In this document: positions 14,811 to 35,611 of the stretch, in pieces
How the letters are laid out: every line of letters starts with the position of its first letter
Numbering within the stretch: the stretch's first letter is position 1
NCBI GenBank assembly: GCA_039683615.1
Contig: JBDKRA010000029.1
Location: 53,256 to 117,255 of the forward strand
Reading direction: 5' to 3'
Length of the DNA stretch: 64,000 nucleotides
DNA from: Phycisphaerae bacterium
GTDB lineage: Bacteria; Planctomycetota; Phycisphaerae; SM23-33
Position numbers and translations under genes: made by a program
Notes under the pieces: model-generated
Database searches by the model: none
What the model was told of the DNA's origin: nothing
Seen by the model: the letters and a program-made list of their open reading frames with translations, nothing else

Positions 14811-14813
14811 GGG

Positions 14814-15368: not shown

Positions 15369-15396
15369 AGCAGTTTCTCCCCGGCCGCCGACCGCT

Positions 15397-16038: not shown

Positions 16039-16102
16039 GCGCCAATCTCCGTAAAAGTTCCTGCTGGGGACGCTACGGCTCGGCCGCGCGTCGCTGGGTG
16101 TC

Positions 16103-17173: not shown

Positions 17174-17176
17174 GGC

Positions 17177-18325
17177 TTACTCTTGGCCGGAAATAAACTT
17201 ATATTTGCCGCCATTTTCCTTGGCGATGGTCTGCAGCACTTCGACAGCCACGGGCGGCTTGTTGCCGTAGAGGAACGTGTTGACGTGCACGTCCCGGCGG
17301 ATGTTCAGCGCCCGGATGGTCGCCAAGGCCTTCTCGTTGTCTGGGAAGACGCCGTCGGTCAACAGAAACAACAACTTGCCTTCCAGCTTCGGATTGGCCG
17401 CGGCCAGCACCGCAAAGGCCCGCTTCAGCGCTGGGATCGGGTCGGTCTGGGCCTGGGCCTGCACTTCCTTGAGGAACTTGACGGCCTCGAGCTTGGACGC
17501 TTCGGTCGCCGAGACGAGTTTCTTGGAGGGCGGTTCCAGCGGCGCGCCTTCGGCGAAAAGGATGATGTGGAAGTCCTGGCTGGACTGGAGACGCCCCATC
17601 GATGCGGCGCACTCTCGCTTGACCAGGTCAAAGCTGTCGCTCATGGAGCCCGAGCGGTCGATGACGTACACGATATGGTGGGCATTGCCGCCGCTGCCGA
17701 ACAGCCCCGCGCCGGGCGCCCCGGCGCCGCCGGCCAGGCCCGCCACCGGGCTGCCGCTACCGGCGCTGCCGCCCTGGGCGTACACGGCAATCTGCTTGTT
17801 GGTGCGGCTGGCGTCGGTGATCAGGGCCGACTCTTTCTTGGAGTAGTTCGGCGAGGCGGCCTTGGGACGGTTGCTCATGGCCTTGGCGGTCTGCTCGCGA
17901 GTGCTGAAGCTGCCGCCGGGGTTTTCGCTCAGCGTGGCCGAGGGGACCAGCACCTTCTTGGGATCGATGGGCGGATTGATCACCATCACCACCAGGAAGA
18001 ACATGATCAGCGCCAGCGCCGCGTGCAGGAACAGGCTGACGACCCAGGGCATCGAGCGGGCCATGACGATCATCATGGCTTCATCGCGATGGCTGCCCTC
18101 TTCTTCCAGAGGCTCTTGGTCTTCCGGGGCCGGCGGAGGCGTCTGAGAAGACGTCGCCACGACGCCGCGTTCGGCGTTGGGCGGCACGTGCGGGCGAGGC
18201 AGAGCGGCCAGTCCCGCCGGAACCACCGTCATCTTTTGACAATGGGGACAGCGGGCCGACTTGCCGATCTCGCCTTCAAGCCGCACCATCTGTCCGCAAT
18301 GTTCGCACCGGAAGTCCGCAGCCAT
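17177..18325 (-). CDS. Zinc-ribbon / single-TM / Pro-rich linker / von Willebrand factor A domain protein
   Basis: N-terminal CxxC...CxxC (CEHCG...CPHCQ), TM helix VVSLFLHAALALIMFFLVVMV, then a VWA domain (VYVIDRSGSMSDSFD... LLFLLTDGVFPDNE). Confidence 0.8.
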   Translation of the reverse strand: MAADFRCEHCGQMVRLEGEIGKSARCPHCQKMTVVPAGLAALPRPHVPPNAERGVVATSSQTPPPAPEDQEPLEEEGSHRDEAMMIVMARSMPWVVSLFLHAALALIMFFLVVMVINPPIDPKKVLVPSATLSENPGGSFSTREQTAKAMSNRPKAASPNYSKKESALITDASRTNKQIAVYAQGGSAGSGSPVAGLAGGAGAPGAGLFGSGGNAHHIVYVIDRSGSMSDSFDLVKRECAASMGRLQSSQDFHIILFAEGAPLEPPSKKLVSATEASKLEAVKFLKEVQAQAQTDPIPALKRAFAVLAAANPKLEGKLLFLLTDGVFPDNEKALATIRALNIRRDVHVNTFLYGNKPPVAVEVLQTIAKENGGKYKFISGQE

Positions 18326-18393
18326 GTCAATCTCCCTGCAACAAACGACCCTATTCTAGCGGATGTTTCGCCGCTAATGCAACCGGCTTATTC

Positions 18394-19491
18394 TCATTCC
18401 GCTTTCACGTTAAAGAAGCCACCATGGTTTTCGGCCGCTATCGTCTTGAGCGTGCTTTCGGCCACGCCCGAGCGGCCGCCGTAGAGGTAAGTGTTGACCT
18501 GCACGAACCGCTGGGGATTCAACGCCCGCACGAGACCCAGGGCCTTGGCACTATCGGGAAACTCCCCGTCGGTGAGCAGGTGCACCAACTGCCGTCGCGT
18601 GGGACCGCGGGAGGCCTTGAGAACCGCAAAGGCCCGCTTCAGCGCCGGCTGCGGGTCGGTCTGGCCCGTGGGCTTAACCTGGAACAGGAACCGCGCCAAG
18701 GCCAGGCGGACCTCATCCGTCGGGGCCGCCAGGTTCGGGCGAAACTCGATAGGCACGCCGCTGTCAAACAACACCACCGCGAAGCGCTGACGGGGGCTCA
18801 GACGCGCGACCTCGCGATTGATCTGGTCGCAGAGATAGCTGAACGTGTCGGACATCGACCCGCTGCGGTCGATCACAAAAACGGTGTCGTCCGGAGGCAA
18901 CCCGTCAGGCACGCGAGGGCCGCCGCCGGGTTTGTCTGCCGTGCCTATGCGGAATATCGCGCCGTCGCCCGGTGTGGGCCGCCCGCTCTGGATCAGCCCC
19001 GGGGCAAGAATGCGGACATCGGGTTTGAGCTTGTCCGGCCGGCCCGGATCCACAAGCTCAGGCTTCTTCCAGACCCGGTCGGAGGGGGCGTCAAGCCGGG
19101 TCGATTCACGACCCGTGTCGGTCAGCTTCACCAGGTCACGGAAACGTATCGACGGTGCACTGTTGTAACCACTCTGCACCTGCGCCGGCGGCTCGGGCTT
19201 CTGCGTCACCATGACGACCACCAGCATCAGGACCAGGCCCAGCGACAGGTGCAGCAGTCCGCTCACCAGCCACGGGAACATCCGCGCAAGCAATCCGTCA
19301 GCCGCGGCGCAGCGCTGCAACTCGCGCTGCTCCTGCTCTTGCGGCGGGGCATCGGGAATCACAGTCACGGGCATGGCCGCGATGGCCTGGGGAACGTAAA
19401 CGTCGCGCCCGCATGCGCACCGCCCGCGCCGGGACCTCGAACCGATCAGCATCTTCCGCCCGCACCGGTCACACTGAACTGGAATCTTCAT
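18394..19491 (-). CDS. Zinc-ribbon / single-TM / VWA domain protein (paralog)
   Basis: CDRCG...CACG zinc ribbon, TM helix WLVSGLLHLSLGLVLMLVVVMV, VWA domain (VFVIDRSGSMSDTF... LVHLLTDGEFPDS). Start set at MKIP. Confidence 0.8.
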   Translation of the reverse strand: MKIPVQCDRCGRKMLIGSRSRRGRCACGRDVYVPQAIAAMPVTVIPDAPPQEQEQRELQRCAAADGLLARMFPWLVSGLLHLSLGLVLMLVVVMVTQKPEPPAQVQSGYNSAPSIRFRDLVKLTDTGRESTRLDAPSDRVWKKPELVDPGRPDKLKPDVRILAPGLIQSGRPTPGDGAIFRIGTADKPGGGPRVPDGLPPDDTVFVIDRSGSMSDTFSYLCDQINREVARLSPRQRFAVVLFDSGVPIEFRPNLAAPTDEVRLALARFLFQVKPTGQTDPQPALKRAFAVLKASRGPTRRQLVHLLTDGEFPDSAKALGLVRALNPQRFVQVNTYLYGGRSGVAESTLKTIAAENHGGFFNVKAE

Positions 19492-19708
19492 GGCAGTACT
19501 CCCCAACAGCAGGTTCTCTCCGATCCTCAAGGCCGGGCCACTGCCGCTTGCGGGTTGGCAGGTTCTCTGCTTGCCGAACAACTGCCAGGCCGCAAGCGGC
19601 AGAGGGAACAGCCGGATTCTTCAGGCATGTCGGCCCCGGGCATTTTTCGCTATGGCCCGGCGGCCGCGTGTTCGTATGATTAGACGCAGTAGTTGCAGAA
19701 AAGTTCCC

Positions 19709-19790
19709 GCGAGGGTGGCGGAATTGGCAGACGCGCCAGGTTTAGGTCCTGGTCCCGAAAGGGATGTGGGTTCGAGTCCCTCCCCTCGCA
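19709..19790 (+). tRNA. tRNA-Leu (TAG)
   Basis: Acceptor GCGAGGG/CCCTCGC, long variable arm, anticodon loop TTTAGGT, T-loop GGTTCGAGTCC. 82 nt. Confidence 0.85.
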
Positions 19791-22023: not shown

Positions 22024-22818
22024 TTAAGCTGGCTGCAACTCTTTTCTTCGTTTGTCCAGTTGGCTCTTGAGGCGTTCCAGGACGGCTGAGTGCATCTGGC
22101 TGACGCGGCTTTCGGAGAGGTCGAGCGTCTGGCCGATCTCTTTCATCGTCATCTCTTCGTAGTAGTACAGGACGATGATGAGCCGTTCGGCGCGGCTGAG
22201 GCCGCGCGTCAGGAGGTCCTTGATGTCCTTGCCCTGGGCGACATGCAGCGGGTCGTCGCTGCGCTTGTCTTCGAGCACGTCGATCTCGCGCACGTCCTTG
22301 CTCGAGTCGGTCTCGAACCACTTGCGGCTCAGCGAGACCTGCCCCACCGTCGCGGCGTCGCGCTTGACCTTCTCGAACTCGCTCATCGACAGCTTCATGC
22401 GCTTGGCCAATTCTGAATTGGTCGGGCTGCGTCCGAGTTGCGCCTCGAGCTCGCGCGAGGCGAGATTGAGCTTGTGAGCGCGGCTGCGGACGAGGCGCGG
22501 CACCCAGTCCATCGATCGCAATTCGTCGAGGATGGCCCCGCGGATGCGCGGACTGCAATACGTCTCGAACTTGACGCCGCGGCCTTCGTCGAACGCCGTC
22601 AGCGCGTCCATCAGCCCGAAGATGCCGGCCGAAATCAGATCGTCGACGTCAACCTCTTCCGGCAGCTTGGTGTACACCCGCTCGGCCGTGTACTTCACAA
22701 GCGGCAGGTAGTACTCCAACAGTTGGTTGCGCGACTCTTCGTCGGCAGTTTTTCTGAACTGTTTCCACCAATGTTCGAGTTGCTCTGGAGACAACTTCTT
22801 CCGTGCTACTGGCGGCAT
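22024..22818 (-). CDS. fliA: Flagellar sigma factor FliA (sigma-28)
   Basis: Sigma-70 regions 2, 3 and 4 in a ~260-aa protein (LISAGIFGLMDALTAFD, FETYCSPRIRGAILDELR, MKEIGQTLDLSESRVSQMHSAVLERLK). Lies beside the flagellar operon. Confidence 0.85.
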   Translation of the reverse strand: MPPVARKKLSPEQLEHWWKQFRKTADEESRNQLLEYYLPLVKYTAERVYTKLPEEVDVDDLISAGIFGLMDALTAFDEGRGVKFETYCSPRIRGAILDELRSMDWVPRLVRSRAHKLNLASRELEAQLGRSPTNSELAKRMKLSMSEFEKVKRDAATVGQVSLSRKWFETDSSKDVREIDVLEDKRSDDPLHVAQGKDIKDLLTRGLSRAERLIIVLYYYEEMTMKEIGQTLDLSESRVSQMHSAVLERLKSQLDKRRKELQPA

Positions 22819-23031: not shown

Positions 23032-23880
23032 TCACTTCAGCCATCCGGCGACTCGTTTGAAGAATCCCTCGCGTCCGACATCGTCCAGGCGGCTGCTGCA
23101 GAGCATGCGGGCTATGTCAGCCAGGCAGCGGCTGGCGGGGCATTGTGGATACGCCAGCACGAGCGGCTGGCGCTGCCGCACAGCCAAGGACATTTTCGGA
23201 TCGCTGATGACGTACCCGCCCTGGGCCACCTGCACGTCCAGGAACTGCTTAGCGACGTTGGCGATTCGCGAACAGGTCGCGCGGCCTTCGGCGGCATTTC
23301 GGGCCTGGTTGGTCACCACGGTCATCGCACAGGACGCGTTGGCGCGGGTGAGGACTTTGATCAGCGCGTAGGCGTCGGTGACGGCTGTGGGCTCGGGCGT
23401 AGTGACGATGACGGCGGTGTCTGCCGCGGCGGCGAAACTCAGCACCTCCGGACCGATGCCGGCGCCACAGTCAATGACAACGACGTCGTTGTCGGCCTCG
23501 AGGGCCGAGAGTTCCTCCAGCAGCCTCGCGCGATCGAAGGCACTCAGGTCGGCCAGGCGCGGCAGGCCGCTGGCGCCGGGGACGAACTGCAGGCCGCAGG
23601 GCAGGTTCATGACGATGTCGCTGACATGGCCGGCGCCCTCGATGACGCGCGACAGGTCCGATGCGGCATCGACGTCAAGCATGATGTCGAGGTTCGCCAA
23701 CGCCAGATCGGCGTCGACCAGCGCGACGCGGTGCCCGGCAGCCGAGATCAGAATCGCCAGGTTCGCGGCGACGCAGCTCTTGCCCACGCCGCCCTTGCCG
23801 CTGGCGACGGCGATGGTGTGCGTGCGGCGCTGCTGCATCAGCGAGCGCAGGCGCTGGGCTTGATCGACGTGCTCGCTCAT
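23032..23880 (-). CDS. flhG: Flagellar number regulator FlhG (MinD/ParA-like ATPase)
   Basis: Deviant Walker A AVASGKGGVGKS; MinD-like. Sits between flhF and fliA. Confidence 0.8.
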   Translation of the reverse strand: MSEHVDQAQRLRSLMQQRRTHTIAVASGKGGVGKSCVAANLAILISAAGHRVALVDADLALANLDIMLDVDAASDLSRVIEGAGHVSDIVMNLPCGLQFVPGASGLPRLADLSAFDRARLLEELSALEADNDVVVIDCGAGIGPEVLSFAAAADTAVIVTTPEPTAVTDAYALIKVLTRANASCAMTVVTNQARNAAEGRATCSRIANVAKQFLDVQVAQGGYVISDPKMSLAVRQRQPLVLAYPQCPASRCLADIARMLCSSRLDDVGREGFFKRVAGWLK

Positions 23881-24971
23881 GAGACCACCTCGCCCAGGAT
23901 CATCTGCGCCAGGCGGTCGGCCTTGGCTGGGGCGATGTCGTCGGGCACTTCCTGGCCGAACGTCGTGTAACTCAGCGGGGCCTTGCTGGCCTCGATCATG
24001 TTCAGCACCAGGCCGTACGTGACGGCCTCGTCGAGCTTGGTCAGCGTGAGGCGGTTGGCGCCGATGCCGGCGAACTTCTCCACCGCCCGCCGCGTGGCTG
24101 CCTGGTTGCCCGTGGCCGATGCCACCAGGTGAACCTCGTCAGCCTCGGCGGCGTCCAGAAAGCTGCGCAGCTGGCCCAGGCGGAGCTGGTCGCCGGGGCT
24201 GCGCCCGGTGGTATCTATAAGGATGACGTCGGCGGCCGTGGCGGCCTTGATCGTTCGGCGCATCTCGGTCGGGCTCAGCACCGCCTGGATAGGCACCTCG
24301 ATGATGTCGGCGTAGGTCTTGAGTTGGTCGACCGCCGCGATGCGGTAAGTGTCGATGGTGATCAGCGAGACGCTCTTGTGCTGGGCGATTTTGAAGTTGG
24401 CGGCGAGCTTGGCGATGGTGGTGGTCTTGCCCACGCCGGTGGGCCCGACGAAGGCGATGACTCTGGGGCCGGCGGCACTCTCGGCCAGCGGAGCAGTACG
24501 GATGCGCGCGGCGATGCGCTTCCGCAGTTCCGTGCGGACGGCGGATTCATCCTGCATCTGCTGCCCGGTCAGGTCGCGGGCGGTCTGGTCGATGAGTTCG
24601 GCCGCCAGCGCCGCCTCGACATCCTGCGCCAGCAGGTGGTCGTGCAGCTTCTGCAGCACCATCGGTCTCTGGACCGCCGCCGACGCAGGCCGGCGGGCCA
24701 ACTGCTCGACGAGGATCTTGATCTCGGCGATCTGCCCATCGAGCCGCCCGGCCGGGGCGGGCGCATCGCTGGCATAGACGCCGGTCAGGGGCGGCAGGAG
24801 GCCGCTGTGCGGGGCGGCGGTGATCTCCCACGCCCGCCGCGAGCCAATGCCCATCCACCCGCCGATGCGGCAGCGGCGCGTGCGCAGGATCACCGCGTCG
24901 CGTCCCAGGTCGCCCTTGACCGCCGCCAGAGCCTCGGCCATCGTCGCTGCTTTATAGTTCTTCGCGTTCAT
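23877..24971 (-). CDS. flhF: Flagellar biosynthesis GTPase FlhF (SRP-type)
   Basis: GPTGVGKTTTIAKLA, DTYRIAA, LIDTTGR SRP-GTPase motifs. Overlaps flhG and flhA. Confidence 0.85.
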   Translation of the reverse strand: MNAKNYKAATMAEALAAVKGDLGRDAVILRTRRCRIGGWMGIGSRRAWEITAAPHSGLLPPLTGVYASDAPAPAGRLDGQIAEIKILVEQLARRPASAAVQRPMVLQKLHDHLLAQDVEAALAAELIDQTARDLTGQQMQDESAVRTELRKRIAARIRTAPLAESAAGPRVIAFVGPTGVGKTTTIAKLAANFKIAQHKSVSLITIDTYRIAAVDQLKTYADIIEVPIQAVLSPTEMRRTIKAATAADVILIDTTGRSPGDQLRLGQLRSFLDAAEADEVHLVASATGNQAATRRAVEKFAGIGANRLTLTKLDEAVTYGLVLNMIEASKAPLSYTTFGQEVPDDIAPAKADRLAQMILGEVVS

Positions 24972-27054
24972 AATGATCTTCCGTGATCGTCACCGGCTGC
25001 ACCTGCACGCCGGAGACTTCGTCGTATCCCAGAACCACCGCCGCCGGAACCGCCGTCGCCACCGCGCCGGCCAGGGCCCTGCGCAGCATGGGCCGGCAGA
25101 GCACCACCGGACGATGGCCCCCCACTCGTAGCCGGCTTGCTCCGGCCGAAACCGCCTGGGCGAGCGTCTCGGCCAAAGCTGGCGAGAGCACCCCGCCGCC
25201 GAGTCCGAGCTCCCGGGCTGCGGACTGTTCGGTCTTCTCGTCCAGGCACAGGCACCACAGGGCCCCGTCGGCGGCGCAGTACTGTTGCGACAGCGCCGGG
25301 CCGAGCTGGCGGCGGATGTAATCGCACGCTTCTTCGATCGGCTCCTCGACCGGTCGCTCGGCCAGTGCTTCGAGGATCGTCTCCAGGTCGCGCACCGATA
25401 CGCCCTGGCCCAGCAGATGCTGCAGGACCTTGTGGATGCGGGCCAGCGGCAGCTTGGCCAGCGTCTCTTTGACCAGCGCCTCCGCCCGGCCGCGGAGTGC
25501 CTCGACCGTGGCGGCCACCTGCTGGCGCGTCAGAAGCGAGGCGGCGTGGATGCGGATCATCTGCCCCAGGTGCGTCATGAGAACGTCGGCCGGCTCGATG
25601 ACCGTGTAGTTGAGCGACTCGGCCGTAGCGACCTGGTCGGCAGCGATCCACACCGCCGCCGTTCCGAATGCCGGCTCGATGGTCTGTCGCCCCAGAAGTT
25701 GACCGGTGGTCGCCCCTGCCGCGACGGCCAGAAGTTGCCCCGGGTACAGCATGCCGCCGCCGACGCGAGCGCCGCGAATCTTGACGACGTACTCGTGCGC
25801 CCGCAGACGCATATCGTCGCGAATGCGGATCGAGGGAACGATCAGACCCAGTTCCAGCGCCACGTCGCGCCGCAGGCCGGCCAGGCGGTCCAGCAGGTCG
25901 CCGTCGCGTGTCTTGTCGGCCAGCGACAGCAGCGCGAAACCCAGGTCCAGTTCCATCGCCTCGACAGCCAGCAGGCCTTTGAGTTCTTTGTCGTCGGCCG
26001 CGGGCTTAGAGACGGTCGAGATGCTCGACGCGTTTGCCGCGGGCAACACGCGCCGCCGTGACAACAGCAGCGCCAGTCCCGCGCATCCGGCCCCCATCAA
26101 CAGCAGCGGCACCTTGGGCAGGCGCGTCAGCATGAGAGCGGCCAAGAACCCCGCCGTCACGGCCAGTGCGATCGGGCGTGCGATCAACTGGCCGATCACC
26201 TGCTCGGCAAAGTTGGTGCGGTCCATGCTGCGCGAAACGATTAGCGCCGCGGCCACGCTGACCAGCAGCGCCGAAATCTGGGCTACCAGCCCGTCGCCGA
26301 TGGTCAGCCGCGTGAACAGGTCGAGCGTCTGCTCCCACCCCCAGGAGTACTGGACCATGCCCACGTACAGCCCGCCGCCGATGTTGACCAGCACGATGAC
26401 CACAGCCGCCACCGCGTCGCCGCGGACGAACTTGGACGCGCCGTCCATCGCGCCGTAGAAATCGGCCTCGCGGGCGATCTTGCGGCGGCGCTGGTGGGCC
26501 TGCGACTCATCAATGGTCCCGGCGTTGACGTCGGCGTCGATGCCCATCTGCTTTCCGGGCATTGCGTCGAGCACGAACCGCGCGGCCACCTCGCTGATAC
26601 GGGCGGCGCCTTTGGTGATCACCACGAACTGCACCACCGCGATGATCGCGAAGAGGATCACGCCCACGGCCAGGCTGCCGCTGGTGACGAACTGGCTGAA
26701 CGACCAGACCACGTGCCCGGCCGCCAGGCGCGCCGTCTCGACATCGGCCCCGCCTGCCCCAGCCGTCAGGATCAGCCGCGTCGTGGCGATGTTGAGCACC
26801 AGCCGCAGCAGCGTCGCTCCCAGCAGCACCGAGGGGAACACGCTGAACTCCAGCGGGCTGTGCACGGCGATGGCCGTCATCAAAATGATCGCCGAGAGGG
26901 CGATGTTGGCCGAGAGCAGCACGTCCATCAGCAGCGGCGGCAGCGGCACCAGCAGCACCAGCACCAGCAGGGCAGCCCCGCCGGGCAACAGCAGCCCGCG
27001 GTATCGCGCCAGCACCCGCGCGGCGCCGTTCATGGTGTCGTTCAGGTCAGCCAT
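24952..27054 (-). CDS. flhA: Flagellar export apparatus protein FlhA
   Basis: Full-length FlhA: FHIPG-like TM domain, conserved FVRGDAVAAVVIVLVNIGGG loop, large cytoplasmic domain. Confidence 0.92.
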   Translation of the reverse strand: MADLNDTMNGAARVLARYRGLLLPGGAALLVLVLLVPLPPLLMDVLLSANIALSAIILMTAIAVHSPLEFSVFPSVLLGATLLRLVLNIATTRLILTAGAGGADVETARLAAGHVVWSFSQFVTSGSLAVGVILFAIIAVVQFVVITKGAARISEVAARFVLDAMPGKQMGIDADVNAGTIDESQAHQRRRKIAREADFYGAMDGASKFVRGDAVAAVVIVLVNIGGGLYVGMVQYSWGWEQTLDLFTRLTIGDGLVAQISALLVSVAAALIVSRSMDRTNFAEQVIGQLIARPIALAVTAGFLAALMLTRLPKVPLLLMGAGCAGLALLLSRRRVLPAANASSISTVSKPAADDKELKGLLAVEAMELDLGFALLSLADKTRDGDLLDRLAGLRRDVALELGLIVPSIRIRDDMRLRAHEYVVKIRGARVGGGMLYPGQLLAVAAGATTGQLLGRQTIEPAFGTAAVWIAADQVATAESLNYTVIEPADVLMTHLGQMIRIHAASLLTRQQVAATVEALRGRAEALVKETLAKLPLARIHKVLQHLLGQGVSVRDLETILEALAERPVEEPIEEACDYIRRQLGPALSQQYCAADGALWCLCLDEKTEQSAARELGLGGGVLSPALAETLAQAVSAGASRLRVGGHRPVVLCRPMLRRALAGAVATAVPAAVVLGYDEVSGVQVQPVTITEDHYEREEL

Positions 27055-27838
27055 CGCTGCCCTCCGTCGGCTTGCGCAGCGATGCCCGCCCGCGCCGTTT
27101 GCTCATTTCCCGCCGCCGAGCCAGGCGGATCTGCGGGTCGCCTTCCATCTTTCGCATGTCGTCGAGGTACTCGCGCCGCGTCATCTTCAGGTCCTGGCGG
27201 AACTGCCATCGCTGGTAGAACAGGTCCACCACCGCCAGCGCCAGCAGCGCCGCCGACGCCCGGATTGCCACCTTCAGCACCGCCCCGCCGCCCCAGGCCG
27301 CTATCTCCTCGCTGCCCCCCGACGTCGGCAAGGCCGTCATGATCCCCAGCGGCGACAGCGCCGCCCATGCAATCGCCCCTGCGGCTGTCACTTTCGCCAG
27401 GCCCAACCCCACGCGCACCCACACGCGGCGGCCGAAGAGCCCTTTCAATCCTTTCATCAAGCCCACGCGCGACAGGTCGAACTTGACCGGCTCGCCTGTC
27501 ATCAGCGGGCCGACCTGTCCCAGCCCAGCGCCGATCGCCAGCAGCGCCGCGGCCAGGCACAGCGCCCCGCCCAGCCACAGCACGCTGCCCAGGCCGGCGA
27601 TCTCAAACGCCCCCGTCGCGCTGGGGGCGCTCTTGCCCGCGGCGTCCAGACTCGCTGAGAACATTTCCCTCATCGCGTTCGTGAGCGACCCGGCCAACGC
27701 CATCAACAGCATCAAGCTGCCAAAGACGACGATCGCGCCGGAGAAGTCCGCGCTGCGCGCAACCTCTCCGCGCCGCCTGGCCTCCTGCAACCGCAGGGGC
27801 GTCGGCATCTCGGTCCGGGATGTAGCGTCTTCACTCAT
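27047..27838 (-). CDS. flhB: Flagellar export protein FlhB, transmembrane domain only (C-terminal cytoplasmic NPTH domain absent)
   Basis: N-terminus PTPLRLQEARRRGEVARS and four TM helices; linker KMTRREYLDDMRKMEGDPQIRLARRRE. The ORF stops 8 nt inside flhA, before any NPTH autocleavage region. Confidence 0.75.
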   Translation of the reverse strand: MSEDATSRTEMPTPLRLQEARRRGEVARSADFSGAIVVFGSLMLLMALAGSLTNAMREMFSASLDAAGKSAPSATGAFEIAGLGSVLWLGGALCLAAALLAIGAGLGQVGPLMTGEPVKFDLSRVGLMKGLKGLFGRRVWVRVGLGLAKVTAAGAIAWAALSPLGIMTALPTSGGSEEIAAWGGGAVLKVAIRASAALLALAVVDLFYQRWQFRQDLKMTRREYLDDMRKMEGDPQIRLARRREMSKRRGRASLRKPTEGSDG

Positions 27839-27850
27839 TCAAACAACTCA

Positions 27851-28008
27851 CCACAGAGGCACAGAGGGCGCAGAGGTAAGAAACAAAACAAGAACCGGGT
27901 GGCATGGCGACATGCGTTGCTGTTCCTTGCGGGTCACCATGCCACCCGTCGCTCGCATCCATCCTGTTGTTGCTTTTTCATTCACTCGTTCTTCTCTGTG
28001 CCTCTGTG
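27851..28008. repeat. Nested palindromic element in the fliR-flhB intergenic region
   Basis: Outer 16-bp inverted repeat CCACAGAGGCACAGAG / CTCTGTGCCTCTGTGG. Inner inverted repeat CGGGTGGCATGGCGAC / GTCACCATGCCACCCG. Shares the GAAACAAAA..GTCGCCATGCCACCCG word with 30331-30362. Confidence 0.6.
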
Positions 28009-28020
28009 GTCAGTCTTTCT

Positions 28021-28803
28021 TCACCCGCCGGCGGCGAGCTGCGCGGCCTTGGCGCCGAGCATATCGGCGCCGCGTTCGATCATCGGCAGCATCAGCGCCA
28101 GGCCGCCGGCCAGGGCGATCAGGCCCACCAGCGCCTGGGCCGGCAGGCCGACGGTCAGGATGTTCAGTTGGGGCATCGTGCGTCCGACCACCGCCAGCAC
28201 CACGCCGATCACCAGCAGCGTCACCACCACCGGGGCGGCGATCTTGATGGCCATCACGAACGAGGCCGCCAGCACCGACATGGCGATGTTCAGCATGCCC
28301 TGCCCGCTACCGATGGCGCCCGGCGCAACGGCAGTGAACGTGCCCATCAGCCCGCTCAGCAGACCGCGGTGCCCGCCGACAGCCAGGAACACCACGATGC
28401 CCAGCAGGTACATCAGCCGCGTCAGCGGATCGTCGCCGCCTTCGCCGTCGGCGGCGTCTGCGTAATACACCTGCCCCAGCGTCAGGCCCATCTGCTGACC
28501 GATCAGGGCAGCCGCCACTTCGATACCTGACAGCAGTGCCCGCGCGGCCAGGCCGATCACCGACCCGATCAGCGCCTCGACGGCCAGCGCGACCAGCCCC
28601 GCACCCGTCGAGACGGGCATGGCCAGCGGCGTGGCGATCTGCGCAGCTGCACCCAGCGCCAAGGCCACGCACAGCAGATATCGCAGGCGGGCGGGCAGCA
28701 CCGAGCTGCTGAAGACCGGCGCGATAACGAACAGCCCGCCGATGCGGGCCATCAGCAGCGCCAGAGTCCAGCCCCAGGTTGTGTACTGCGACAAATCCAT
28801 CAT
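28021..28803 (-). CDS. fliR: Flagellar export apparatus protein FliR
   Basis: ~260-aa polytopic membrane protein directly downstream of fliQ, with a FliR-like N-terminus. Confidence 0.8.
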   Translation of the reverse strand: MMDLSQYTTWGWTLALLMARIGGLFVIAPVFSSSVLPARLRYLLCVALALGAAAQIATPLAMPVSTGAGLVALAVEALIGSVIGLAARALLSGIEVAAALIGQQMGLTLGQVYYADAADGEGGDDPLTRLMYLLGIVVFLAVGGHRGLLSGLMGTFTAVAPGAIGSGQGMLNIAMSVLAASFVMAIKIAAPVVVTLLVIGVVLAVVGRTMPQLNILTVGLPAQALVGLIALAGGLALMLPMIERGADMLGAKAAQLAAGG

Positions 28804-29054
28804 CCTGTCCCGAACATCGCTCGCGCGAACTCCACCAGCCGCGTCAGCATCCAGTGCCCCGCCAGCGAGGCCGTCACCGCCACGGCGATCAGCTTGGGCA
28901 CGAAGGTCAACGCCTGGTCCTGGATCTGCGTGGCCGCCTGCAGCAGGCTGACGATCAGTGCGATCACCAGCGCCGCCACGAGCATCGGCGCGCCAACGAC
29001 CAGCGTCACCTTCAGGGCCTCGCGGGCCAGATCCATTGCGTGTGCGGCGTCCAT
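28800..29054 (-). CDS. fliQ: Flagellar export apparatus protein FliQ
   Basis: 84-aa two-TM protein with LQAATQIQDQALTFVPKLIAV, matching the FliQ consensus. Start placed at MDAAHA. Confidence 0.8.
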   Translation of the reverse strand: MDAAHAMDLAREALKVTLVVGAPMLVAALVIALIVSLLQAATQIQDQALTFVPKLIAVAVTASLAGHWMLTRLVEFARAMFGTG

Positions 29055-29056
29055 CG

Positions 29057-29863
29057 TTATCCTTGTGCGAAACTTTGCATCAGCGTGCCGACGACCAGGT
29101 GCCACCCGTCAGCCAGCACGAACAGCAGCAGTTTGAACGGAATCGAGACCATCACCGGCGGCATCATCAGCATGCCCATCGACGTCAACACCGACGCCAC
29201 CAGCAGGTCCACCACCAGGAACGGCAGGTACACGCGGAAGCCGATCCAGAAGGCGGTCTTGAGCTCGCTGACGACGAACGCCGCGATCACGGCCGGCGTG
29301 GGCACATCCTTCCACGTCAGCTTGCCCGCGCGCGAGGCCTCGCTCTGCTTGGCGTCCAGGAACAGCACCACGTCGTTCTGGCTGTTGGAGGCCTCGATCT
29401 GGCGGATCATGAACGTCCGCACCGGCGCGGCGCCGGCGGCCAGCGCCGCCTCGCCCTGCGCACGGCCGGCGAGATACGGCTCGATTCCGTCGCGATACAC
29501 CGCCGAATAGACCGGCGACATCACGACCACCGTCATCAGCAGCGCCAAGCCGAAGAGCACCTGGTTGGGCGGCAACTGATTGGTCGCCATCGCCTGGCGC
29601 AGCAGCCCCAGCACGACGACGATCCGCGTGAAGCACGTCATCAAAATCGCCACCGCCGGCGCGACGGAAAGCACCGTCACCAGGGCGACCCACTTGAGGG
29701 CGTTGCCCGCATCCTGCGGACTCGACAGGCTCGGCAGCGATATCCCAGTCGCCGCAGCGGCGGCGGGCGCTGTCGCCGCTTGCGGCGCGGCAGGCGCCGA
29801 CTGCGGCGCGAACACCGCAGCCGCCAGCACCACCGCAGCAAGGATGTTTTTCTTTGAACTCAT
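29057..29863 (-). CDS. fliP: Flagellar export apparatus protein FliP
   Basis: Signal peptide, then FTRIVVVLGLLRQAMATNQLPPNQVL and a C-terminal FliP signature. Confidence 0.88.
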   Translation of the reverse strand: MSSKKNILAAVVLAAAVFAPQSAPAAPQAATAPAAAAATGISLPSLSSPQDAGNALKWVALVTVLSVAPAVAILMTCFTRIVVVLGLLRQAMATNQLPPNQVLFGLALLMTVVVMSPVYSAVYRDGIEPYLAGRAQGEAALAAGAAPVRTFMIRQIEASNSQNDVVLFLDAKQSEASRAGKLTWKDVPTPAVIAAFVVSELKTAFWIGFRVYLPFLVVDLLVASVLTSMGMLMMPPVMVSIPFKLLLFVLADGWHLVVGTLMQSFAQG

Positions 29864-30318
29864 TTCGGTTCGATAGACTCTTTCGCGGGCGTCTGCGCCG
29901 CCGGCGTGCCCAGCAGCGCCGCCACTTCATCCGCGTCCGTCACTTCCGACAGCGTCGTCATCTGCTCGGGGCCCACGCCCACCAGCACCAGGCGGCGGCC
30001 CATGCGGACCAGGATCACCTGGTGCCGGTACGTCACGCTGCGGCGGGCGACGATCTCGATGGCTGCGCCGCCCCGCACGCCGACTCGCTGGCCGCCCATG
30101 CGCTTCATCGCCGAGCGGACAAGCAGGATCAGGGCGATTACCACCGCCAGAGCCCCCGCCGTGCGCAGCAGGTCCCACTCGGCGCCTGGGGCAGTCCCCT
30201 TGCCGATGGGCCGCTCCTCGACCGACTGCAGCGGCCGCGTGGAGACGTCCGTCGTTGCCGGGGCGCTCTGGGCCATGATGGTTGTGGCTGTCAGAAGAAT
30301 CGCCGCTGCGACGATCAT
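29860..30318 (-). CDS. fliO: Flagellar protein FliO
   Basis: Single TM helix MIVAAAILLTATTIMA. ~150-aa protein immediately upstream of fliP. The track N-terminal extension was rejected because it runs through the repeat elements. Confidence 0.6.
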   Translation of the reverse strand: MIVAAAILLTATTIMAQSAPATTDVSTRPLQSVEERPIGKGTAPGAEWDLLRTAGALAVVIALILLVRSAMKRMGGQRVGVRGGAAIEIVARRSVTYRHQVILVRMGRRLVLVGVGPEQMTTLSEVTDADEVAALLGTPAAQTPAKESIEPK

Positions 30319-30330
30319 GGCGACCCGCTT

Positions 30331-30407
30331 GAAACAAAAACGCGTGTCGCCATGCCACCCGACTGGGAGTTCAGGGACACGCACAACGGAGTTGTGCGTG
30401 GCACCCG
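30331..30407. repeat. Two adjacent repeat elements inside the flagellar operon (fliN-fliO spacer)
   Basis: 30331-30362 GAAACAAAAACGCGTGTCGCCATGCCACCCG is related to 27879-27948 and 35645-35672. 30372-30407 is near-identical to 1428-1464. Confidence 0.6.
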
Positions 30408-30458: not shown

Positions 30459-30686
30459 TCATGTCGTTCTCGCGCCGTCTATCCGCACGCCCAGGCGGTC
30501 CTGCACGCTCACCAGCGTGCCCACTGCCGTCGCTGCGCCGTCGCGGCTTATTTCGACCGCCCCGGCCGCAGGCGTATCGAGCGTGACGATCGAGCCGGGC
30601 GCCAACTCCCGCAGCGCCGCCGCGTTCAGCCACGCCCTGCCCAGGTCGATGCGTACGGCAGTCTGTGTTTCCTGTTGCGTCGTCAT
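30459..30686 (-). CDS. fliN: Flagellar motor switch protein FliN (SpoA domain)
   Basis: RIDLGRAWLNAAALRELAPGSIVTLD...VQDRLGVRI is the FliN/SpoA C-terminal domain. Confidence 0.75.
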   Translation of the reverse strand: MTTQQETQTAVRIDLGRAWLNAAALRELAPGSIVTLDTPAAGAVEISRDGAATAVGTLVSVQDRLGVRIDGARTT

Positions 30687-31135
30687 TGCACGCCCTCGCC
30701 TGCGGATCGCGCGGCGTACGCTTCGTCGGCAGCCGCGGCGGCCAACGCCGTCTCACGCAGGCACTGCTGCCGGCGGCGGCGGTCGGCCAGCGCCCGGGCC
30801 ACCCGCACCAGCAGCACCGCGTCGAGCAGGGCCTTGCGGCTGCGCACGAGCGATTGCTCGCCGTCGCGGGCCTGCTGCTTCAGACCGCCCATCGCGGCCC
30901 GAATGCCATCCACGCTCACGCGGTATCCGGCCGGAACGCCCTGGCCGGCTGGCGAGAGCAAACTGCGCCGTGCCGCCGCGTCGTGCTCATCGAGCGAGCC
31001 GTCCAGCGCCGCCAGCCGACTCCGCAGGGCTGTCAGGTCCTGGTACGTGCGCGCCAGGACCGCTGCAGCCTGGTCTTGCTGCCGGCGGCGAAACCGCACC
31101 AGCATGTCAGCGCATTGCGTGCGTCGGTCGGTCAT
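30683..31135 (-). CDS. fliJ: Flagellar export chaperone FliJ-like coiled-coil protein
   Basis: ~150-aa helical protein between fliI and fliN. Assigned by position and composition. Confidence 0.5.
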   Translation of the reverse strand: MTDRRTQCADMLVRFRRRQQDQAAAVLARTYQDLTALRSRLAALDGSLDEHDAAARRSLLSPAGQGVPAGYRVSVDGIRAAMGGLKQQARDGEQSLVRSRKALLDAVLLVRVARALADRRRRQQCLRETALAAAAADEAYAARSAGEGVQ

Positions 31136-32468
31136 GGAGGTACGTTCCTGTTTCTTGCGGTTCGTCGGCGACCGCAAGCTTTTGCAGTGACGCGATGGTC
31201 TGGTCGAAGTCGCACGGCTCGGCCACGTCCTGCGTCAAGAAGGCGTCGATGGCGTCGCGGGCGGCGATGGCTTCGTCATATTGCGGATTGGCCCCGGCCT
31301 GATAGACGCCCAGGTTGAGCAACTCTTCGACCTCGCGATAGAGCCCGACCAGTCGCCGCACGCGAGCGGCCGCCGCCTGATGTTCCGGCGCGGCGACCTC
31401 GTCCATCACGCGCGATACGCTGGTGACAATGTCGATGGCCGGCCAGTGCCCGCGGTTGGCCAGCGTGCGCGTCAGGTGGATGTGCCCGTCGGCCACCGCC
31501 CGCACGGCGTCGGCCAGCGGGTCGCCCGCGTCGCCTTCCTCGGCCAGCACCGTGTAGAAACCGGTGATCGATCCCGCCGCCGTGCGGCCGCAGCGCTCCA
31601 TCAACTGCGGCAGCAGGTTGAAGACGCTAGGTGTGTACCCTCGCACGGTCGCCGGCTCGCCCGCGGCCAGGCCGATCTGGCGCTGGGCCGACGCCAGGCG
31701 CGTCAGCGAGTCCATCACCAGCAGCACGTTGGCGCCGCGGTCGCGGAAGTATTCAGCCACAGCCGTAGCGACCGCGCCGGCCTGCACGCGCAGCAGCGGC
31801 GGCTCGTCGCTCGTCGAGGCTATCACGACGCAGTGCTTGAGGGCGTCACTGCCAAGTTCCTTGTCGACGAAGTCGCGTACCTCGCGGCCGCGCTCGCCGA
31901 TCAGCGCCACCACCGTCACGTCGGCGATGGCGCGGCGGGCGATCATGCCCAGCAGCACGCTCTTGCCCACGCCGCTGCCGGAGACAATGCCCATGCGCTG
32001 CCCCTGGCCGACGGTGAGCATCGCGTCGATGGCCCGCACGCCGGAGGGCAGCGGCGTGTCGATGCGCCGCCGCGACAGCGGGGCGATGGGCTGCGGCCAC
32101 AGGCTCTGCGGCATCGGCGCGGCCGGCGCCGGCAGGCCGTCGATGCAGCGCCCCAGGCCGTCGAGCACGCGCCCCAGCAGTCCTTCGCACACTCCGACGG
32201 TCTGCTCGGCGAAGGTGCAGTGCACCAGGTCGCCGCGGCGGATGCCCGTCATGGCCCCGGCCGGCATCACCAGCGTGCTGCGCCCGTCGAAGCCGATCAC
32301 GCGGGCGTCCAGCCCGCCGCCGGCGCACGCCAGGCGGCAGCCCGCCCCCAGCGGCACGGCGAAGTCGGCCACGCTGACCGTCAACCCGCGCACCGCCTCC
32401 ACGCGGCCGGTGATGTCCACCGGCTCGATGCGGTCCAGCGCCTCGGATTGTCGCTCAAATATCTGCAT
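31107..32468 (-). CDS. fliI: Flagellum-specific ATPase FliI
   Basis: Walker A GSGVGKS, Walker B LLVMDSLTR, FliI/T3SS-ATPase N-terminal beta-barrel. Confidence 0.92.
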   Translation of the reverse strand: MQIFERQSEALDRIEPVDITGRVEAVRGLTVSVADFAVPLGAGCRLACAGGGLDARVIGFDGRSTLVMPAGAMTGIRRGDLVHCTFAEQTVGVCEGLLGRVLDGLGRCIDGLPAPAAPMPQSLWPQPIAPLSRRRIDTPLPSGVRAIDAMLTVGQGQRMGIVSGSGVGKSVLLGMIARRAIADVTVVALIGERGREVRDFVDKELGSDALKHCVVIASTSDEPPLLRVQAGAVATAVAEYFRDRGANVLLVMDSLTRLASAQRQIGLAAGEPATVRGYTPSVFNLLPQLMERCGRTAAGSITGFYTVLAEEGDAGDPLADAVRAVADGHIHLTRTLANRGHWPAIDIVTSVSRVMDEVAAPEHQAAAARVRRLVGLYREVEELLNLGVYQAGANPQYDEAIAARDAIDAFLTQDVAEPCDFDQTIASLQKLAVADEPQETGTYLHDRPTHAMR

Positions 32469-33222
32469 GCACGCTCGTATCCGCGGCCGGGATGTACCGG
32501 CCGGTCGTATTTTGCTGTGGCTCGCTGGGCCGACCGAGCAGCGCCTGGGCGACCCGCCGCAGTTGCGTTTCGATGGTCGCGTCGACCGCCCCGCAGCGCG
32601 TCAGCACTCGCGCGCCGCCGGCGGCAATGCTGCTGTCGGCCTCGAACCGCACGCGGCCGGCGCGGGCGAGCTGCCGCCAGAGGCGCTGGCCTTCCTGCTC
32701 CAGCGCCGGAAGCTGCCCAGGATTGACGCACACGATGATCTCGTCGGCGTCGCTGGCCAGCTCCATCGCCCGGCGCAGGTTCACCAGCGCCGCGCGAGTG
32801 TCCACGGCCGCCACTTCGCCCACGATCCGCCGCGCCAGCTCGATGCCGAATCGCAGCAACTGCTCCTGGCGGTCCTGCTGGACCTGCCCGGCGGCCGCGG
32901 CCAGTTCGTCCACGATCTTGCCTGCCGCCTGCGCCAGGGCGGACATTCGCAACTGGCTCTTCTGGGCCGCCTGCCGCAGGCCGTGAGCGTAGCCTTCGGT
33001 CTGGCCGCGCTGGAATCCTTGCTCGTAGGCGCTGCGGTTGTAGTTGGTCTGGGCCGACTCGAGCTGCGCCTGTGCGGCGGCGACGATCTGCTGAGCCTGC
33101 AAGCGGGCCTGGTCGAGAATTTCTTTGCCCGCGGCCTCGAAGTCCGGCAGGGCCAACTCGGGCGCGCCGGCGTCGCCGCACGCGGCGGCTTGGATGATCC
33201 AGGCTGTCTTGGAGGCGTTCAT
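32455..33222 (-). CDS. fliH: Flagellar assembly protein FliH
   Basis: Coiled-coil N-terminal half and a FliH/YscL-like C-terminal domain. Start set at MNASK. The upstream in-frame extension is arginine-rich high-GC noise. Confidence 0.65.
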   Translation of the reverse strand: MNASKTAWIIQAAACGDAGAPELALPDFEAAGKEILDQARLQAQQIVAAAQAQLESAQTNYNRSAYEQGFQRGQTEGYAHGLRQAAQKSQLRMSALAQAAGKIVDELAAAAGQVQQDRQEQLLRFGIELARRIVGEVAAVDTRAALVNLRRAMELASDADEIIVCVNPGQLPALEQEGQRLWRQLARAGRVRFEADSSIAAGGARVLTRCGAVDATIETQLRRVAQALLGRPSEPQQNTTGRYIPAADTSVHADI

Positions 33223-35123
33223 GTGGCGGCGGCCTCCCGTGCTTCGTCGAGCGTGCTGCCGCAGCGGCGAACCATGCGGGCGACGTGGTCCTGGGCGGCT
33301 TCCACTTCGCTCAGCCGCACCGGCGGCAGCGTGTCCATCTGGCGGCGCAGGTCTCGCGTCGCGCGGCCGCCGATGCAGTGGAAGATTTTCGTGCGGATGG
33401 CCTGGCCCGCTGTGCGCATCGCCACGGCCAGCACCTGCGGATCGAGTGCGGCCAGTGCGGCGCGGAGTTCGTCGTCGTCGACAAGTTCGAGGTCTTCGAA
33501 CCCCAGCATGTCGCGGCGGATGTTGCGGGCCAGTTGCGGCTGACTCGAGGCCACCAGGTCCATCACGGTCCCGCCGGCGGCACCGCCGGCGTGCGTGAGG
33601 ATGTCGCGAATGACGGCCTCGCCCTGGCCCTGCGGAGTGTGGAGGGCGTTGAGGCGGTCGATGAGCGTATCCAGCACGTCCTGCACCGTTCGCTCGTCGA
33701 CCGTTAGCGGGTGCGCCAGGTGCATCACCACCTGCCGAGCGATCGGGGCATCGAGCGCGGCCAGCATCGCCGCCGACCGCCGCGGGTTCATCCGCGAAAG
33801 CACGATGGCGATCGTCTGCGTCTGCTCGGCCGCCAGCACCCACAGCAAATCGTCGTCGGCCAGGAGCTCCAGCCGGCGAATCTTGCTCTCCTCGGCCGTA
33901 ATCTCGCACGGCGGCTGCGCCACCTGCTCGGCCGCGGTGCGAGCCCTGGCACGACGGCGGCGACGCACGGCCGCGATGATGCAGAAGACCCCCGCCGCAA
34001 CCAGCACACCCGAGCCGGCGACAGCCCAGCCGCTACGGCCCTGCTGCGGCGGGCCCACAAATGCTGCCGCGAGGGCTTTGCCCGATAGCGCGTCGGTGTA
34101 GCAGTCGACGCTGACGGCCTTGGCGTCGGCCCCGATGATTCGCGCCGCGGCGGCGGCGATCCGTGCCGACTCATCGCGCGTGACTTGCTGAATGTCGAGA
34201 TTACGGCTGGCGGCGATGGCCTCGAAATAGCTCCGCGGCGCCAGCAGTGACGCGGCGGTGCAAGACTCGCCCTGCACCGCTGCGGTGACAGTCAGGCCCG
34301 GCACGTACGTCAGGGCCCCGGCGATGCGCTGCTGCCAGTAGTCGGCCACGCGGGCGCGGTTGGCCAGCCGGTCTTCCTGCGCCAGCGTCTCGTCGCCTGG
34401 CCGGTAGCTGCGCCCGCGCTGGTCGATCACGCACACGGCAGTGCGCTCCAGTCCGGCGTTGCTGCCGGCCAGCAGGTCGGCGATGGCGTTGACGAGTTGG
34501 GCGCTCATGCGCGCCTGGGCCCGCATGCGGAGGTTGACCGCAGCGGTGGCCGCGACTGCGGGCTGGCCGATCTTGCCGGCGCGGCCGCCCTCGAAGATGA
34601 CCTCGGCGTACTCGACGTCGGGGAACTGGCCGATCAGGCGCGAGAGCCGCTCGGCCTTGGCGGCCGCGGCGCGCTGTGAACGCTGCGATTCCGACAGCCA
34701 GATGTCTTCCTGAGACGAAGCCGCCTGCGCCGCGAGATCCTGCGGCGTCAGTGAGGCGTCGGTGAGGATCTTACGCGCCGCCGGCAGCGCGTCGGGCTGC
34801 ACGAGCAATCGCCCGCCGACGATCTGGCACTCGATGCCCCCGCCGGAGAGCATGGCGGCGGCGTTCTTGACGTGCTCGGCCGGCAGAGGCTGGTTAAAGA
34901 CGGCCTTGCGCTGCGGGGCAGCGTCGCTGGCCATCAGCCAGATGCCCCCCGCCACCGCCAGCACGGCCAGCGCAGCAAGGGCCGCCTGCCAGATGCGGCC
35001 GGTGACCGTCGCCTGGGCCTTGAGCCTCAGCCAAAGTTTGTACAGCACCTTCACCACGCGGTCCTCCGTGACCGCAAGTTGAGTGGCACGGCAAGAACGC
35101 GTGCCACCCGCTCGATCATCCAT
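33219..35123 (-). CDS. fliF-fliG: Fused FliF (MS-ring) and FliG (rotor/switch) protein
   Basis: N-terminal ~410 aa has TM1, an RBM1-like block (VFNQPLPAEHVKNAAAMLSGGGIECQIVG) and TM2. C-terminal ~215 aa has the FliG middle motif EQTQTIAIVLSRMNPRRSAAMLAALDAPIARQVVMHLA and the torque-helix region RLSEVEAAQDHVARMVRR. Single uninterrupted 634-codon ORF. Confidence 0.8.
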   Translation of the reverse strand: MDDRAGGTRSCRATQLAVTEDRVVKVLYKLWLRLKAQATVTGRIWQAALAALAVLAVAGGIWLMASDAAPQRKAVFNQPLPAEHVKNAAAMLSGGGIECQIVGGRLLVQPDALPAARKILTDASLTPQDLAAQAASSQEDIWLSESQRSQRAAAAKAERLSRLIGQFPDVEYAEVIFEGGRAGKIGQPAVAATAAVNLRMRAQARMSAQLVNAIADLLAGSNAGLERTAVCVIDQRGRSYRPGDETLAQEDRLANRARVADYWQQRIAGALTYVPGLTVTAAVQGESCTAASLLAPRSYFEAIAASRNLDIQQVTRDESARIAAAAARIIGADAKAVSVDCYTDALSGKALAAAFVGPPQQGRSGWAVAGSGVLVAAGVFCIIAAVRRRRRARARTAAEQVAQPPCEITAEESKIRRLELLADDDLLWVLAAEQTQTIAIVLSRMNPRRSAAMLAALDAPIARQVVMHLAHPLTVDERTVQDVLDTLIDRLNALHTPQGQGEAVIRDILTHAGGAAGGTVMDLVASSQPQLARNIRRDMLGFEDLELVDDDELRAALAALDPQVLAVAMRTAGQAIRTKIFHCIGGRATRDLRRQMDTLPPVRLSEVEAAQDHVARMVRRCGSTLDEAREAAAT

Positions 35124-35132
35124 GACAGAGCA

Positions 35133-35474
35133 CTACGTCGCCGGCGCGCCCGAAAGCCGCAGGCGAATCTGCCCGAGCTTCATGCCCGAGGCCTTCAACT
35201 CTTCAATCGAATCCAATCGCTCGAACGCCGACTCGTCATAGAGCCGGTGCCCGCCGCGGGTCCAGCCGCATTCCTGCAGCAGCCCCATGGCCGTGTAGTT
35301 GTGGATCGTCTGGCGGCTGGCGCCGAGATAGTCGGCCAGTTCGCTGATGCGATAGACCTTAGGCGGCCGTCGCCGACCGCCGCGACTCGCCGCAGGCGTT
35401 ATGCCGCCACCAGACCCCACGCCGTCCGAGGAGCTGCCGGCAGGTGTCTGCGGATTTGTGTCTATCGCATCCAT
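35133..35474 (-). CDS. MerR-family transcriptional regulator
   Basis: HTH YRISELADYLGASRQTIHNYTAMGLL and a dimerisation helix. Start set at MDAID. Confidence 0.7.
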   Translation of the reverse strand: MDAIDTNPQTPAGSSSDGVGSGGGITPAASRGGRRRPPKVYRISELADYLGASRQTIHNYTAMGLLQECGWTRGGHRLYDESAFERLDSIEELKASGMKLGQIRLRLSGAPAT

Positions 35475-35611
35475 AAAGGTCTCAAGTGCTGCGCTCACGG
35501 TCGACCGGCTACTACTCTTTACGCTTTGCAAAATGTATAGCACCTGCGGCAAAGCAGCAACGGAAAAATCTTTAGAAAATCTGAAAAAAGTTACCGCCAC
35601 GACGATATGGG

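Follow-up and report, generated by a model that had tools for sequence, protein, structure and literature searches.

A flagellar FlhB without its cytoplasmic autocleavage domain in an uncultured lineage of Planctomycetota

The autocleavage of FlhB/SctU at an N-P-T-H site is treated as the conserved core of the specificity switch in both flagella and injectisomes, and the C-terminal cytoplasmic domain that carries this site (FlhB_C) is treated as an essential dock for early substrates. This work concerns the flhB gene in a 64,000-nucleotide stretch of contig JBDKRA010000029.1 from a Phycisphaerae bacterium (the window, 64 kilobases (kb) in full), which encodes an FlhB that lacks this domain. 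The closest precedents for an FlhB of this kind are laboratory constructs. The CC deletion of Helicobacter pylori FlhB in combination with FlhX (HP1575), together with the stand-alone FlhX and YlqH proteins, sets a precedent for a C-terminal subdomain that is not covalently attached to FlhB. In H. pylori the truncation is engineered, FlhX is present in the genome, and strand beta1 remains to pair with the domain in trans; here the truncation is natural, all of FlhB_C is gone, and the DNA searched yielded no FlhX-like gene. The non-cleaving FlhB variants of Salmonella (N269A/P270A) have natural counterparts in the relatives of this lineage that carry a degenerate domain. The Salmonella C-terminal frameshift suppressors of fliK (PMC3708937) indicate that altered C-terminal regions shift the dependence on FliK. 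These point and frameshift mutants are of laboratory origin and keep most of the domain, whereas in the present lineage the change is ancestral and ends in complete loss. The literature yielded no report of an FlhB without the C domain in Planctomycetota, nor of a natural FlhB or SctU lacking it. A paper on split genes in the Pseudomonas syringae type III secretion system 2 was considered as a precedent and rejected, since it concerns the secretin, HrcQ and hrcN/hrcV and not SctU.

The protein resembles canonical FlhB (Salmonella and Vibrio; PDB 6s3l and 8z5s) and SctU/YscU of injectisomes in its match to PF01312, its N-terminal segment, its four transmembrane (TM) helices, the linker (...DLKMTRRE...MEGDP...) and its position between fliR and flhA. 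In contrast to canonical FlhB, the protein has no part of the globular cytoplasmic domain, so that strand beta1 and the loop with the N-P-T-H autocleavage site are absent as well. Residues 7-249 correspond to positions 2-240 of the 335 positions in the Pfam profile PF01312 (Bac_export_2; FlhB/HrpN/YscU/SpaS) with an E value of 8.5e-49, and the last ~95 positions (~241-335), which represent the C-terminal globular cytoplasmic domain, have no counterpart. The alignment to the Vibrio FlhB structures covers residues 4-260 only and then stops. Both comparisons recover the N-terminal segment and the four TM helices. The linker after TM4 (FlhB_CN) is present, and QRWQFRQDLKMTRREYLDDMRKMEGDPQIR shows little or no variation within the lineage. 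The gene also has the fliPQR-flhB-flhA operon context of the FlhB/SctU family. Judged by its N-terminal two-thirds, the protein is a member of PF01312, but it has neither the C domain nor the NPTH motif, both of which define FlhB/SctU.

The protein ends in ...EGDPQIRLARRREMSKRRGRASLRKPTEGSDG*, also given as ...MEGDPQIRLARRREMSKRRGRASLRKPTEGSDG, approximately 28 residues past EGDP. The TGA stop codon of flhB (27047-27049) and the ATG of flhA (27054-27052) result in an overlap of 8 nucleotides (nt). Since flhA is directly downstream and complete, there is no space for a hidden C domain. The motif NP[TESA]H has zero occurrences in the six frames of the window, and two hidden Markov models (HMMs) of FlhB_C found no such domain in its six-frame translation (best E values of 0.23, which is the linker of FlhB itself, and 4.6). 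The initial annotation of this DNA had claimed that FlhB is without its NPTH-bearing C domain and that flhB ends 8 nt inside the start of flhA, with no coding room for the domain. The PF01312 match and the absence of the motif bear out the first claim, and the coordinates and the complete FlhA confirm the second. An AlphaFold2 model of the protein, made from a 10-sequence alignment, predicts four long helices with low confidence (predicted local distance difference test 55; predicted template modelling score 0.32). The model is too poor for a fold search and adds nothing to this reading. Annotation pipelines call the short FlhB proteins 'export apparatus switch protein' despite the missing switch part.

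In principle, the 3' end of a normal flhB could have been lost to a frameshift from sequencing or assembly, or to a deletion that recently inactivated the gene. Fragments of this type do arise in noisy long-read assemblies, and nothing more specific speaks for an artefact here. However, the identical FlhB is found in two NCBI assemblies (MCE5328322.1 of GCA_021371965.1, and MEN6664477.1). An orthologue with 77% identity and equal length, also with an 8-nt overlap, is present in the sister metagenome-assembled genome (MAG) GCA_021372275.1 (L042/L043), and the same orthologue was recovered independently in the Logan assembly of SRR15035646. A word-indexed protein search returned relatives of 253-272 amino acids (aa), down to 39% identity, ahead of the first full-length protein. 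When GTDB was scanned with one genome for each species, eight further species-representative MAGs were found in which a flhB of 256-272 aa is followed directly by flhA. The studies behind these MAGs are unrelated and cover fen, the Zodletone spring, tar biofilm, sediments, Microflora Danica and others. The loci L004, L042/L043 and L046 likewise carry a short flhB and then flhA, and at least 11 independent loci have a flhB of 256-272 aa with flhA always directly after it. The named loci are labelled mostly Phycisphaerae, Phycisphaerales or Planctomycetota, and one Planctomycetaceae. The flhB-flhA junction varies between genomes, with an 8-nt overlap, a 1-nt overlap or a 3-nt gap; therefore, the sequences are independent of one another rather than copies of a single error. 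One further candidate for a short FlhB, P0043/L005, was dropped, as its contig is a noisy long-read assembly with every gene fragmented.

The short form is widespread. In an exhaustive HMMER search, a profile made from ten of the short FlhBs was compared with 1.84 billion representatives of clusters at 50% identity, and the best 150 were sorted into classes. The short class has 84 members, mostly 249-277 aa long (74 of them at least 245 aa), none of which has an FlhB_C match. The tight lengths in this class argue against contig-end fragments. Approximately 39 of the 150 are full-length (~340-384 aa) yet reach only 17-85 bits against the canonical FlhB_C HMM, or give no score. The other ~27 are canonical, with 104-165 bits and NPTH or NPTE in most. 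By these counts, the short flhB belongs to a large, diverse and uncultured planctomycete lineage, with Phycisphaerae as the label on most of its MAGs.

The truncated gene is also under purifying selection. The ratio of non-synonymous to synonymous substitution rates (dN/dS, Nei-Gojobori) of flhB is 0.34 for the window against L042 and 0.175 in a second pair, L015/L024. Across the 35 linker codons after TM4 (codons 206-240), the window and L042 differ by 8 synonymous changes and by no non-synonymous change. Over all 14 genes of the operon dN/dS is 0.05-0.34, and flhA, flhF, flhG and fliA are at or below 0.09. Since these ratios are those of purifying selection, the truncated flhB and its operon are, by this measure, functional. 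The architecture recurs in at least 11 independent loci and in 74-84 clusters at 50% identity, flhA starts in the region of the flhB stop codon, and there is no remnant of C-domain coding sequence. An artefact or pseudogene is therefore extremely improbable. The refuting scenario foreseen at the outset, full-length FlhB in the relatives and a frameshift in this genome, is excluded, as the truncation is lineage-wide and under selection.

The full-length proteins with low FlhB_C scores bear on how the domain was lost. These degenerate FlhBs comprise P0011, P0014 and ~37 further clusters. The canonical ...ADVVVTNPTH(F/Y)AVAL.Y... is replaced by, for example, VVIAAP-GGPAVA, ALVAT-GG or VVVAAPMPG, and Asn-Pro does not occur at the cleavage position among the aligned degenerate sequences. 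Fold-like features (..VVED..LA..L.R.CR.G..VP...VAEILAYA) are still present in the degenerate C domains. P0011 and P0014 have fast-evolving C domains that are only 30-40% identical to any other. Canonical planctomycete FlhBs are best conserved in the C domain, with 59-79% identity versus 34-52% in the N domain. NPTE takes the place of NPTH in many planctomycete FlhBs that are otherwise canonical (L007, L013, L028; P0015, P0413, P0417, P0430, P0444 and others).

A neighbour-joining tree of FlhA places the genomes with short and with degenerate FlhB in one clade, apart from canonical Phycisphaerae (100/100 bootstraps). The short forms alone are monophyletic in 0/100 bootstraps, and the two degenerate ones group together in 1/100. 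The downstream order fliA, diaminopimelate (DAP) epimerase, haloacid dehalogenase (HAD) hydrolase is common to L038 (degenerate) and L004 (short). Because short and degenerate genomes form a single clade in which the short ones are never monophyletic, the simplest history is that the Asn-Pro autocleavage site was lost in the common ancestor of the lineage, that constraint on the C domain was then relaxed or altered, and that this domain was deleted later. Some descendants keep a fast-evolving, non-cleavable C domain, and others, this genome included, deleted it in at least two independent events, so that flhB came to abut flhA. The figure of at least two losses rests on the FlhA tree. Counting losses on a neighbour-joining tree of 140 N-terminal domains was rejected because that tree is too noisy (27 parsimony changes); it suggests that there were many more losses, with noise too high to count them. 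The succession from a lost site to a degenerate domain and then to repeated deletion shows decay in place rather than an intact move of the domain to another gene.

The main rival explanation is a split FlhB. A separate small gene elsewhere, like FlhX of Helicobacter and Pseudomonas or YlqH of Bacillus, would provide the switch and the docking in trans, and the fused domain would have turned redundant, then decayed and then been deleted. Redundancy would account for a C domain that is relaxed and repeatedly lost, since an FlhX/YlqH-like paralogue could itself relax selection on the fused domain. It is also in favor of a split FlhB that the lineage DNA searched is confined to the window, with 10 kb past its right end, and ~256 kb of lineage loci. 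An FlhB_C HMM of 137 sequences found nothing in the window or in the ~256 kb of lineage loci, and the positive controls gave E values of 1e-38 to 1e-52. In all 46 loci (684 kb), canonical planctomycete loci included, the HMM matches flhB genes only (canonical 128-172 bits; degenerate 41-71 bits) and no FlhB_C-like open reading frame (ORF) lies outside flhB. No second copy of FlhB_C was found near the canonical planctomycete flhB loci. In an FlhB_C profile search of a set of 5.8 billion proteins, the best 120 matches are all short. The two FlhB_C-only database proteins on long contigs that were checked, P0175 and P0158, are frameshift fragments from noisy long-read assemblies; they were rejected as stand-alone FlhB_C on this ground, with fliP, fliR, flhB and flhA all broken up.

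The truncated proteins end before strand beta1 (...VP.ADVVVTN), as judged from the alignment and the established structure of FlhB_C; therefore, nothing would be left to pair with a subdomain in trans. With these results a split FlhB is considered unlikely. The initial annotation had posed a split gene and a different way of switching as the alternatives. This choice was correctly posed, and the split gene is weakened and not refuted, given that the domain decayed in place and none was found in the window or in the ~256 kb of lineage loci. As a side observation, frameshifts split fliP, fliR, flhB and flhA in the long-read assemblies ERZ25039523 and ERZ25039539 (ENA; L002, L003, L005). In protein databases such pieces pass for 'short FlhB' or 'stand-alone FlhB_C', and they prevail in the rankings of profile searches.

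The operon around flhB has a flagellar and not an injectisome gene set, with FliF, FliG, FliH/I/J, FliN, FliO-R, FlhA/B, FlhF, FlhG and FliA. The order in the lineage is merR-like, fliF::fliG, fliH, fliI, fliJ, fliN (75-88 aa), fliO, fliP, fliQ, fliR, flhB, flhA, flhF, flhG, fliA. The genes fliH, fliI and fliJ are not in the cluster of L004, L008 and L009, where fliN or fliO comes directly after the fusion (L004: 5444-7686). FliF and FliG have been joined in one polypeptide in engineered fusion and deletion-fusion strains of Salmonella. A 945-aa chain in PDB 8z4d ('Flagellar M-ring protein, Flagellar motor switch protein FliG') likewise has FliF joined to FliG. The fusion in this lineage differs from these in that it is natural, lineage-wide and compact. 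It contains YscJ_FliF (58-217), a TM segment, FliG_M (404-474) and FliG_C (503-599), and it aligns with T. maritima FliG_MC. The C-terminal tail of FliF and FliG_N are both missing. These two parts normally bind each other. The in-frame fusion (585-633 aa as called) is also present in L004, L006, L008, L009, L016, L020, L024, L025, L040, L042 and L046, and it occurs in every truncated-FlhB locus of the lineage that covers the region upstream of fliN. In canonical Phycisphaerae loci, it was not seen within ~6-10 kb upstream of fliO.

In Salmonella, D456, F459 and T490 of FlhA form the docking site for late-substrate chaperones. The FlhA encoded here aligns with residues 29-678 of Salmonella FlhA and has E, F and T at these positions. 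Since the FlhA_C docking residues are kept and flhF, flhG and fliA are strongly constrained, the machine may still be a flagellar export apparatus that handles chaperoned late substrates.

Loss of FlhB_C without replacement, with an intact and functional flhB in which the domain decayed and was then lost, is the preferred explanation and is judged to be somewhat probable. What is retained corresponds exactly to the portion of FlhB that forms part of the FliPQR-FlhB gate, and no segment of it is more constrained than the linker. The 263-aa FlhB would be a membrane subunit only, which completes this gate through its TM hairpins and linker helix. The autocleavage-dependent switch from hook to filament would not be performed by FlhB. 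The order of export could then be set by FlhA_C and chaperones, by a transcriptional hierarchy based on FliA, or by a simplified set of substrates. In Salmonella, C-terminal frameshift mutants of flhB suppress a fliK deletion (PMC3708937), showing that the normal handshake between FliK and FlhB_C can become dispensable once the C-terminal region is altered. A broader claim would be that the lineage runs flagellar-type type III export with no FlhB/SctU switch domain, fused or in trans, and that the domain is dispensable and the apparatus streamlined. This claim is plausible, and it is held tentatively. In that case, with FliF and FliG fused, a minimal FliN and an FlhB that serves the gate only, either another mechanism would order the substrates or there would be no switching.

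Several points weigh against a loss without replacement. In Salmonella, FlhB_C is needed for export and docks hook-type substrates, and to our knowledge there is no precedent for an export gate that works without it. A takeover in trans by an FlhX/YlqH-like protein would yield the same pattern of decay and then loss. In canonical Phycisphaerae (L018), fliK-flgD-flgE-flbD-motA-motB-x-fliN (178 aa) stands ahead of fliOPQR-flhBA, with the block located between fliJ and fliN. The fliK-flgD-flgE-flbD-motA-motB block is not in the operon of this lineage; therefore, the hook-length, hook and stator block has been removed from it. In the window, L042 and L004, EQTQ or EQAQ takes the place of the FliM-binding EHPQ motif of FliG, and RQ or RH that of the acidic pair in the torque helix. 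These changes suggest altered C-ring and stator contacts in this sub-lineage. In most members of the lineage, EHPQ is intact and the torque helix has one acidic residue or more.

The missing block and the FliG changes are also in line with a reduced apparatus that does not switch. Such an apparatus would not build hook and filament in sequence, and could be a simplified export machine derived from a flagellum or a relic basal body. With only one class of substrate there would be no need for the switch by FliK and FlhB_C. The fusion without FliG_N, the 75-aa FliN and the position of fliH/I/J outside the cluster in L004, L008 and L009 favor this explanation as well. No rod, hook, FliK, filament or stator genes were found in the 64-kb window. 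The rest of the window and the regions flanking 12 lineage loci also contain no flagellar genes. A Pfam scan of 52 flank ORFs from these 12 loci gave housekeeping genes only, as did the 10 kb beyond the right end of the window. The synteny of the flanks is kept, with an S-methyltransferase, a tetratricopeptide repeat (TPR) protein and MerR upstream and the DAP epimerase and HAD hydrolase downstream. A FlgE profile search gave 2303 matches, the 120 best at 672-811 bits; among the matches listed, only canonical relatives are found, and those named by organism are Phycisphaerae or Planctomycetota, a result that carries no weight for or against hook genes in this lineage. However, flhF, flhG and fliA belong to the genes under the strongest constraint (dN/dS 0.05-0.09), FliG_C is kept along with its motifs in most of the lineage, and the chaperone-docking residues of FlhA_C are conserved. 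Flagellar genes are also often scattered genome-wide, and absence from an operon does not equal absence from the genome. A reduced apparatus is rather improbable, and its share of the probability overlaps with that of loss without replacement.

The features of the operon and its spacer are listed in Table 1. The fliN gene overlaps the probable fliJ by 4 nt (30683-30686). A MerR gene is located directly upstream of the fusion in L004, L006, L008, L040, L042 and L046 as well, and is a candidate regulator of the cluster.

Table 1. Coordinates in the window of the genes in the flagellar cluster and of the spacer ahead of flhB.
Feature	Coordinates	Strand	Remarks
merR-family regulator	35133..35600	-	directly upstream of the cluster; kept lineage-wide
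fliF-fliG fusion	33219..35057	-	612 aa, or 634 aa from the ATG at 35123
fliH	32455..33222	-	PF02108
fliI ATPase	31107..32468	-	PF00006 and PF18269
probable fliJ	30683..31135	-	150 aa; assigned by position; no Pfam match here; orthologues in L040 and L046 match PF02050 (FliJ)
fliN	30459..30686	-	75 aa; SpoA/FliMN_C domain only; PF01052 at residues 6-70
fliO	29860..30318	-	PF04347
fliP	29057..29863	-	PF00813
fliQ	28800..29054	-	PF01313
fliR	28021..28803	-	PF01311; dN/dS 0.16
fliR-flhB spacer	27839..28020	-	182 nt; nested palindromic repeat element, from inverted repeats and fold
flhB	27047..27838	-	263 aa; N-terminal cytoplasmic segment, four TM helices and linker helix; without the cytoplasmic autocleavage domain
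flhA	24952..27054	-	700 aa, complete; FHIPEP profile 2-653 of 657; dN/dS 0.07
flhF	23877..24971	-	SRP54 GTPase family; dN/dS 0.06
flhG	23032..23880	-	ParA/MinD family; dN/dS 0.09
fliA (sigma-28-type factor)	22024..22818	-	Sigma70 r2, r3 and r4; dN/dS 0.05

The spacer between fliR and flhB contains outer arms of 21 nt (27846-27866 and 27994-28014) and an inner hairpin (27896-27948). The predicted RNA fold of the spacer has an energy of -85 kcal/mol and a z score of -7.8. A related repeat arm is present in the fliN-fliO spacer (30316-30361). The repeat core CGGGTGGCATGGCGAC occurs 3 times in the window, where 0.17 is expected, and within the flagellar operon only. The sister genome has one copy at another site (L042 2024-2037). 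The spacer repeat has no match in Rfam. It is probably a small element like a repetitive extragenic palindromic (REP) sequence or a miniature inverted-repeat transposable element (MITE), and it could affect the processing of the operon mRNA.

The window also has a cluster at 14307-19581(-) with an ExbB/MotA-family gene, two ExbD genes, TPR proteins and two genes with a von Willebrand factor A (VWA) domain. This cluster resembles an operon of the Bat/aerotolerance type or the Tol/Exb type and is not flagellar. Two tRNA genes are located at 10461-10534(-) and 19709-19790(+).

The lineage amounts to a natural evolutionary experiment on what FlhB_C is needed for. Its scale is considerable, with at least 74 clusters (50% identity) without the domain and ~39 more that are non-cleavable. 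The finding points to components that may be able to carry the switch, namely FlhA_C, the chaperones, FliK and the transcriptional hierarchy. In combination with the FliF-FliG fusion it describes a compact core cluster, which is a possible guide for the engineering of a minimal flagellum or a minimal type III secretion system. If it is true that there is no switch domain in cis or in trans, a domain regarded as universal and essential in all type III secretion systems would be dispensable.

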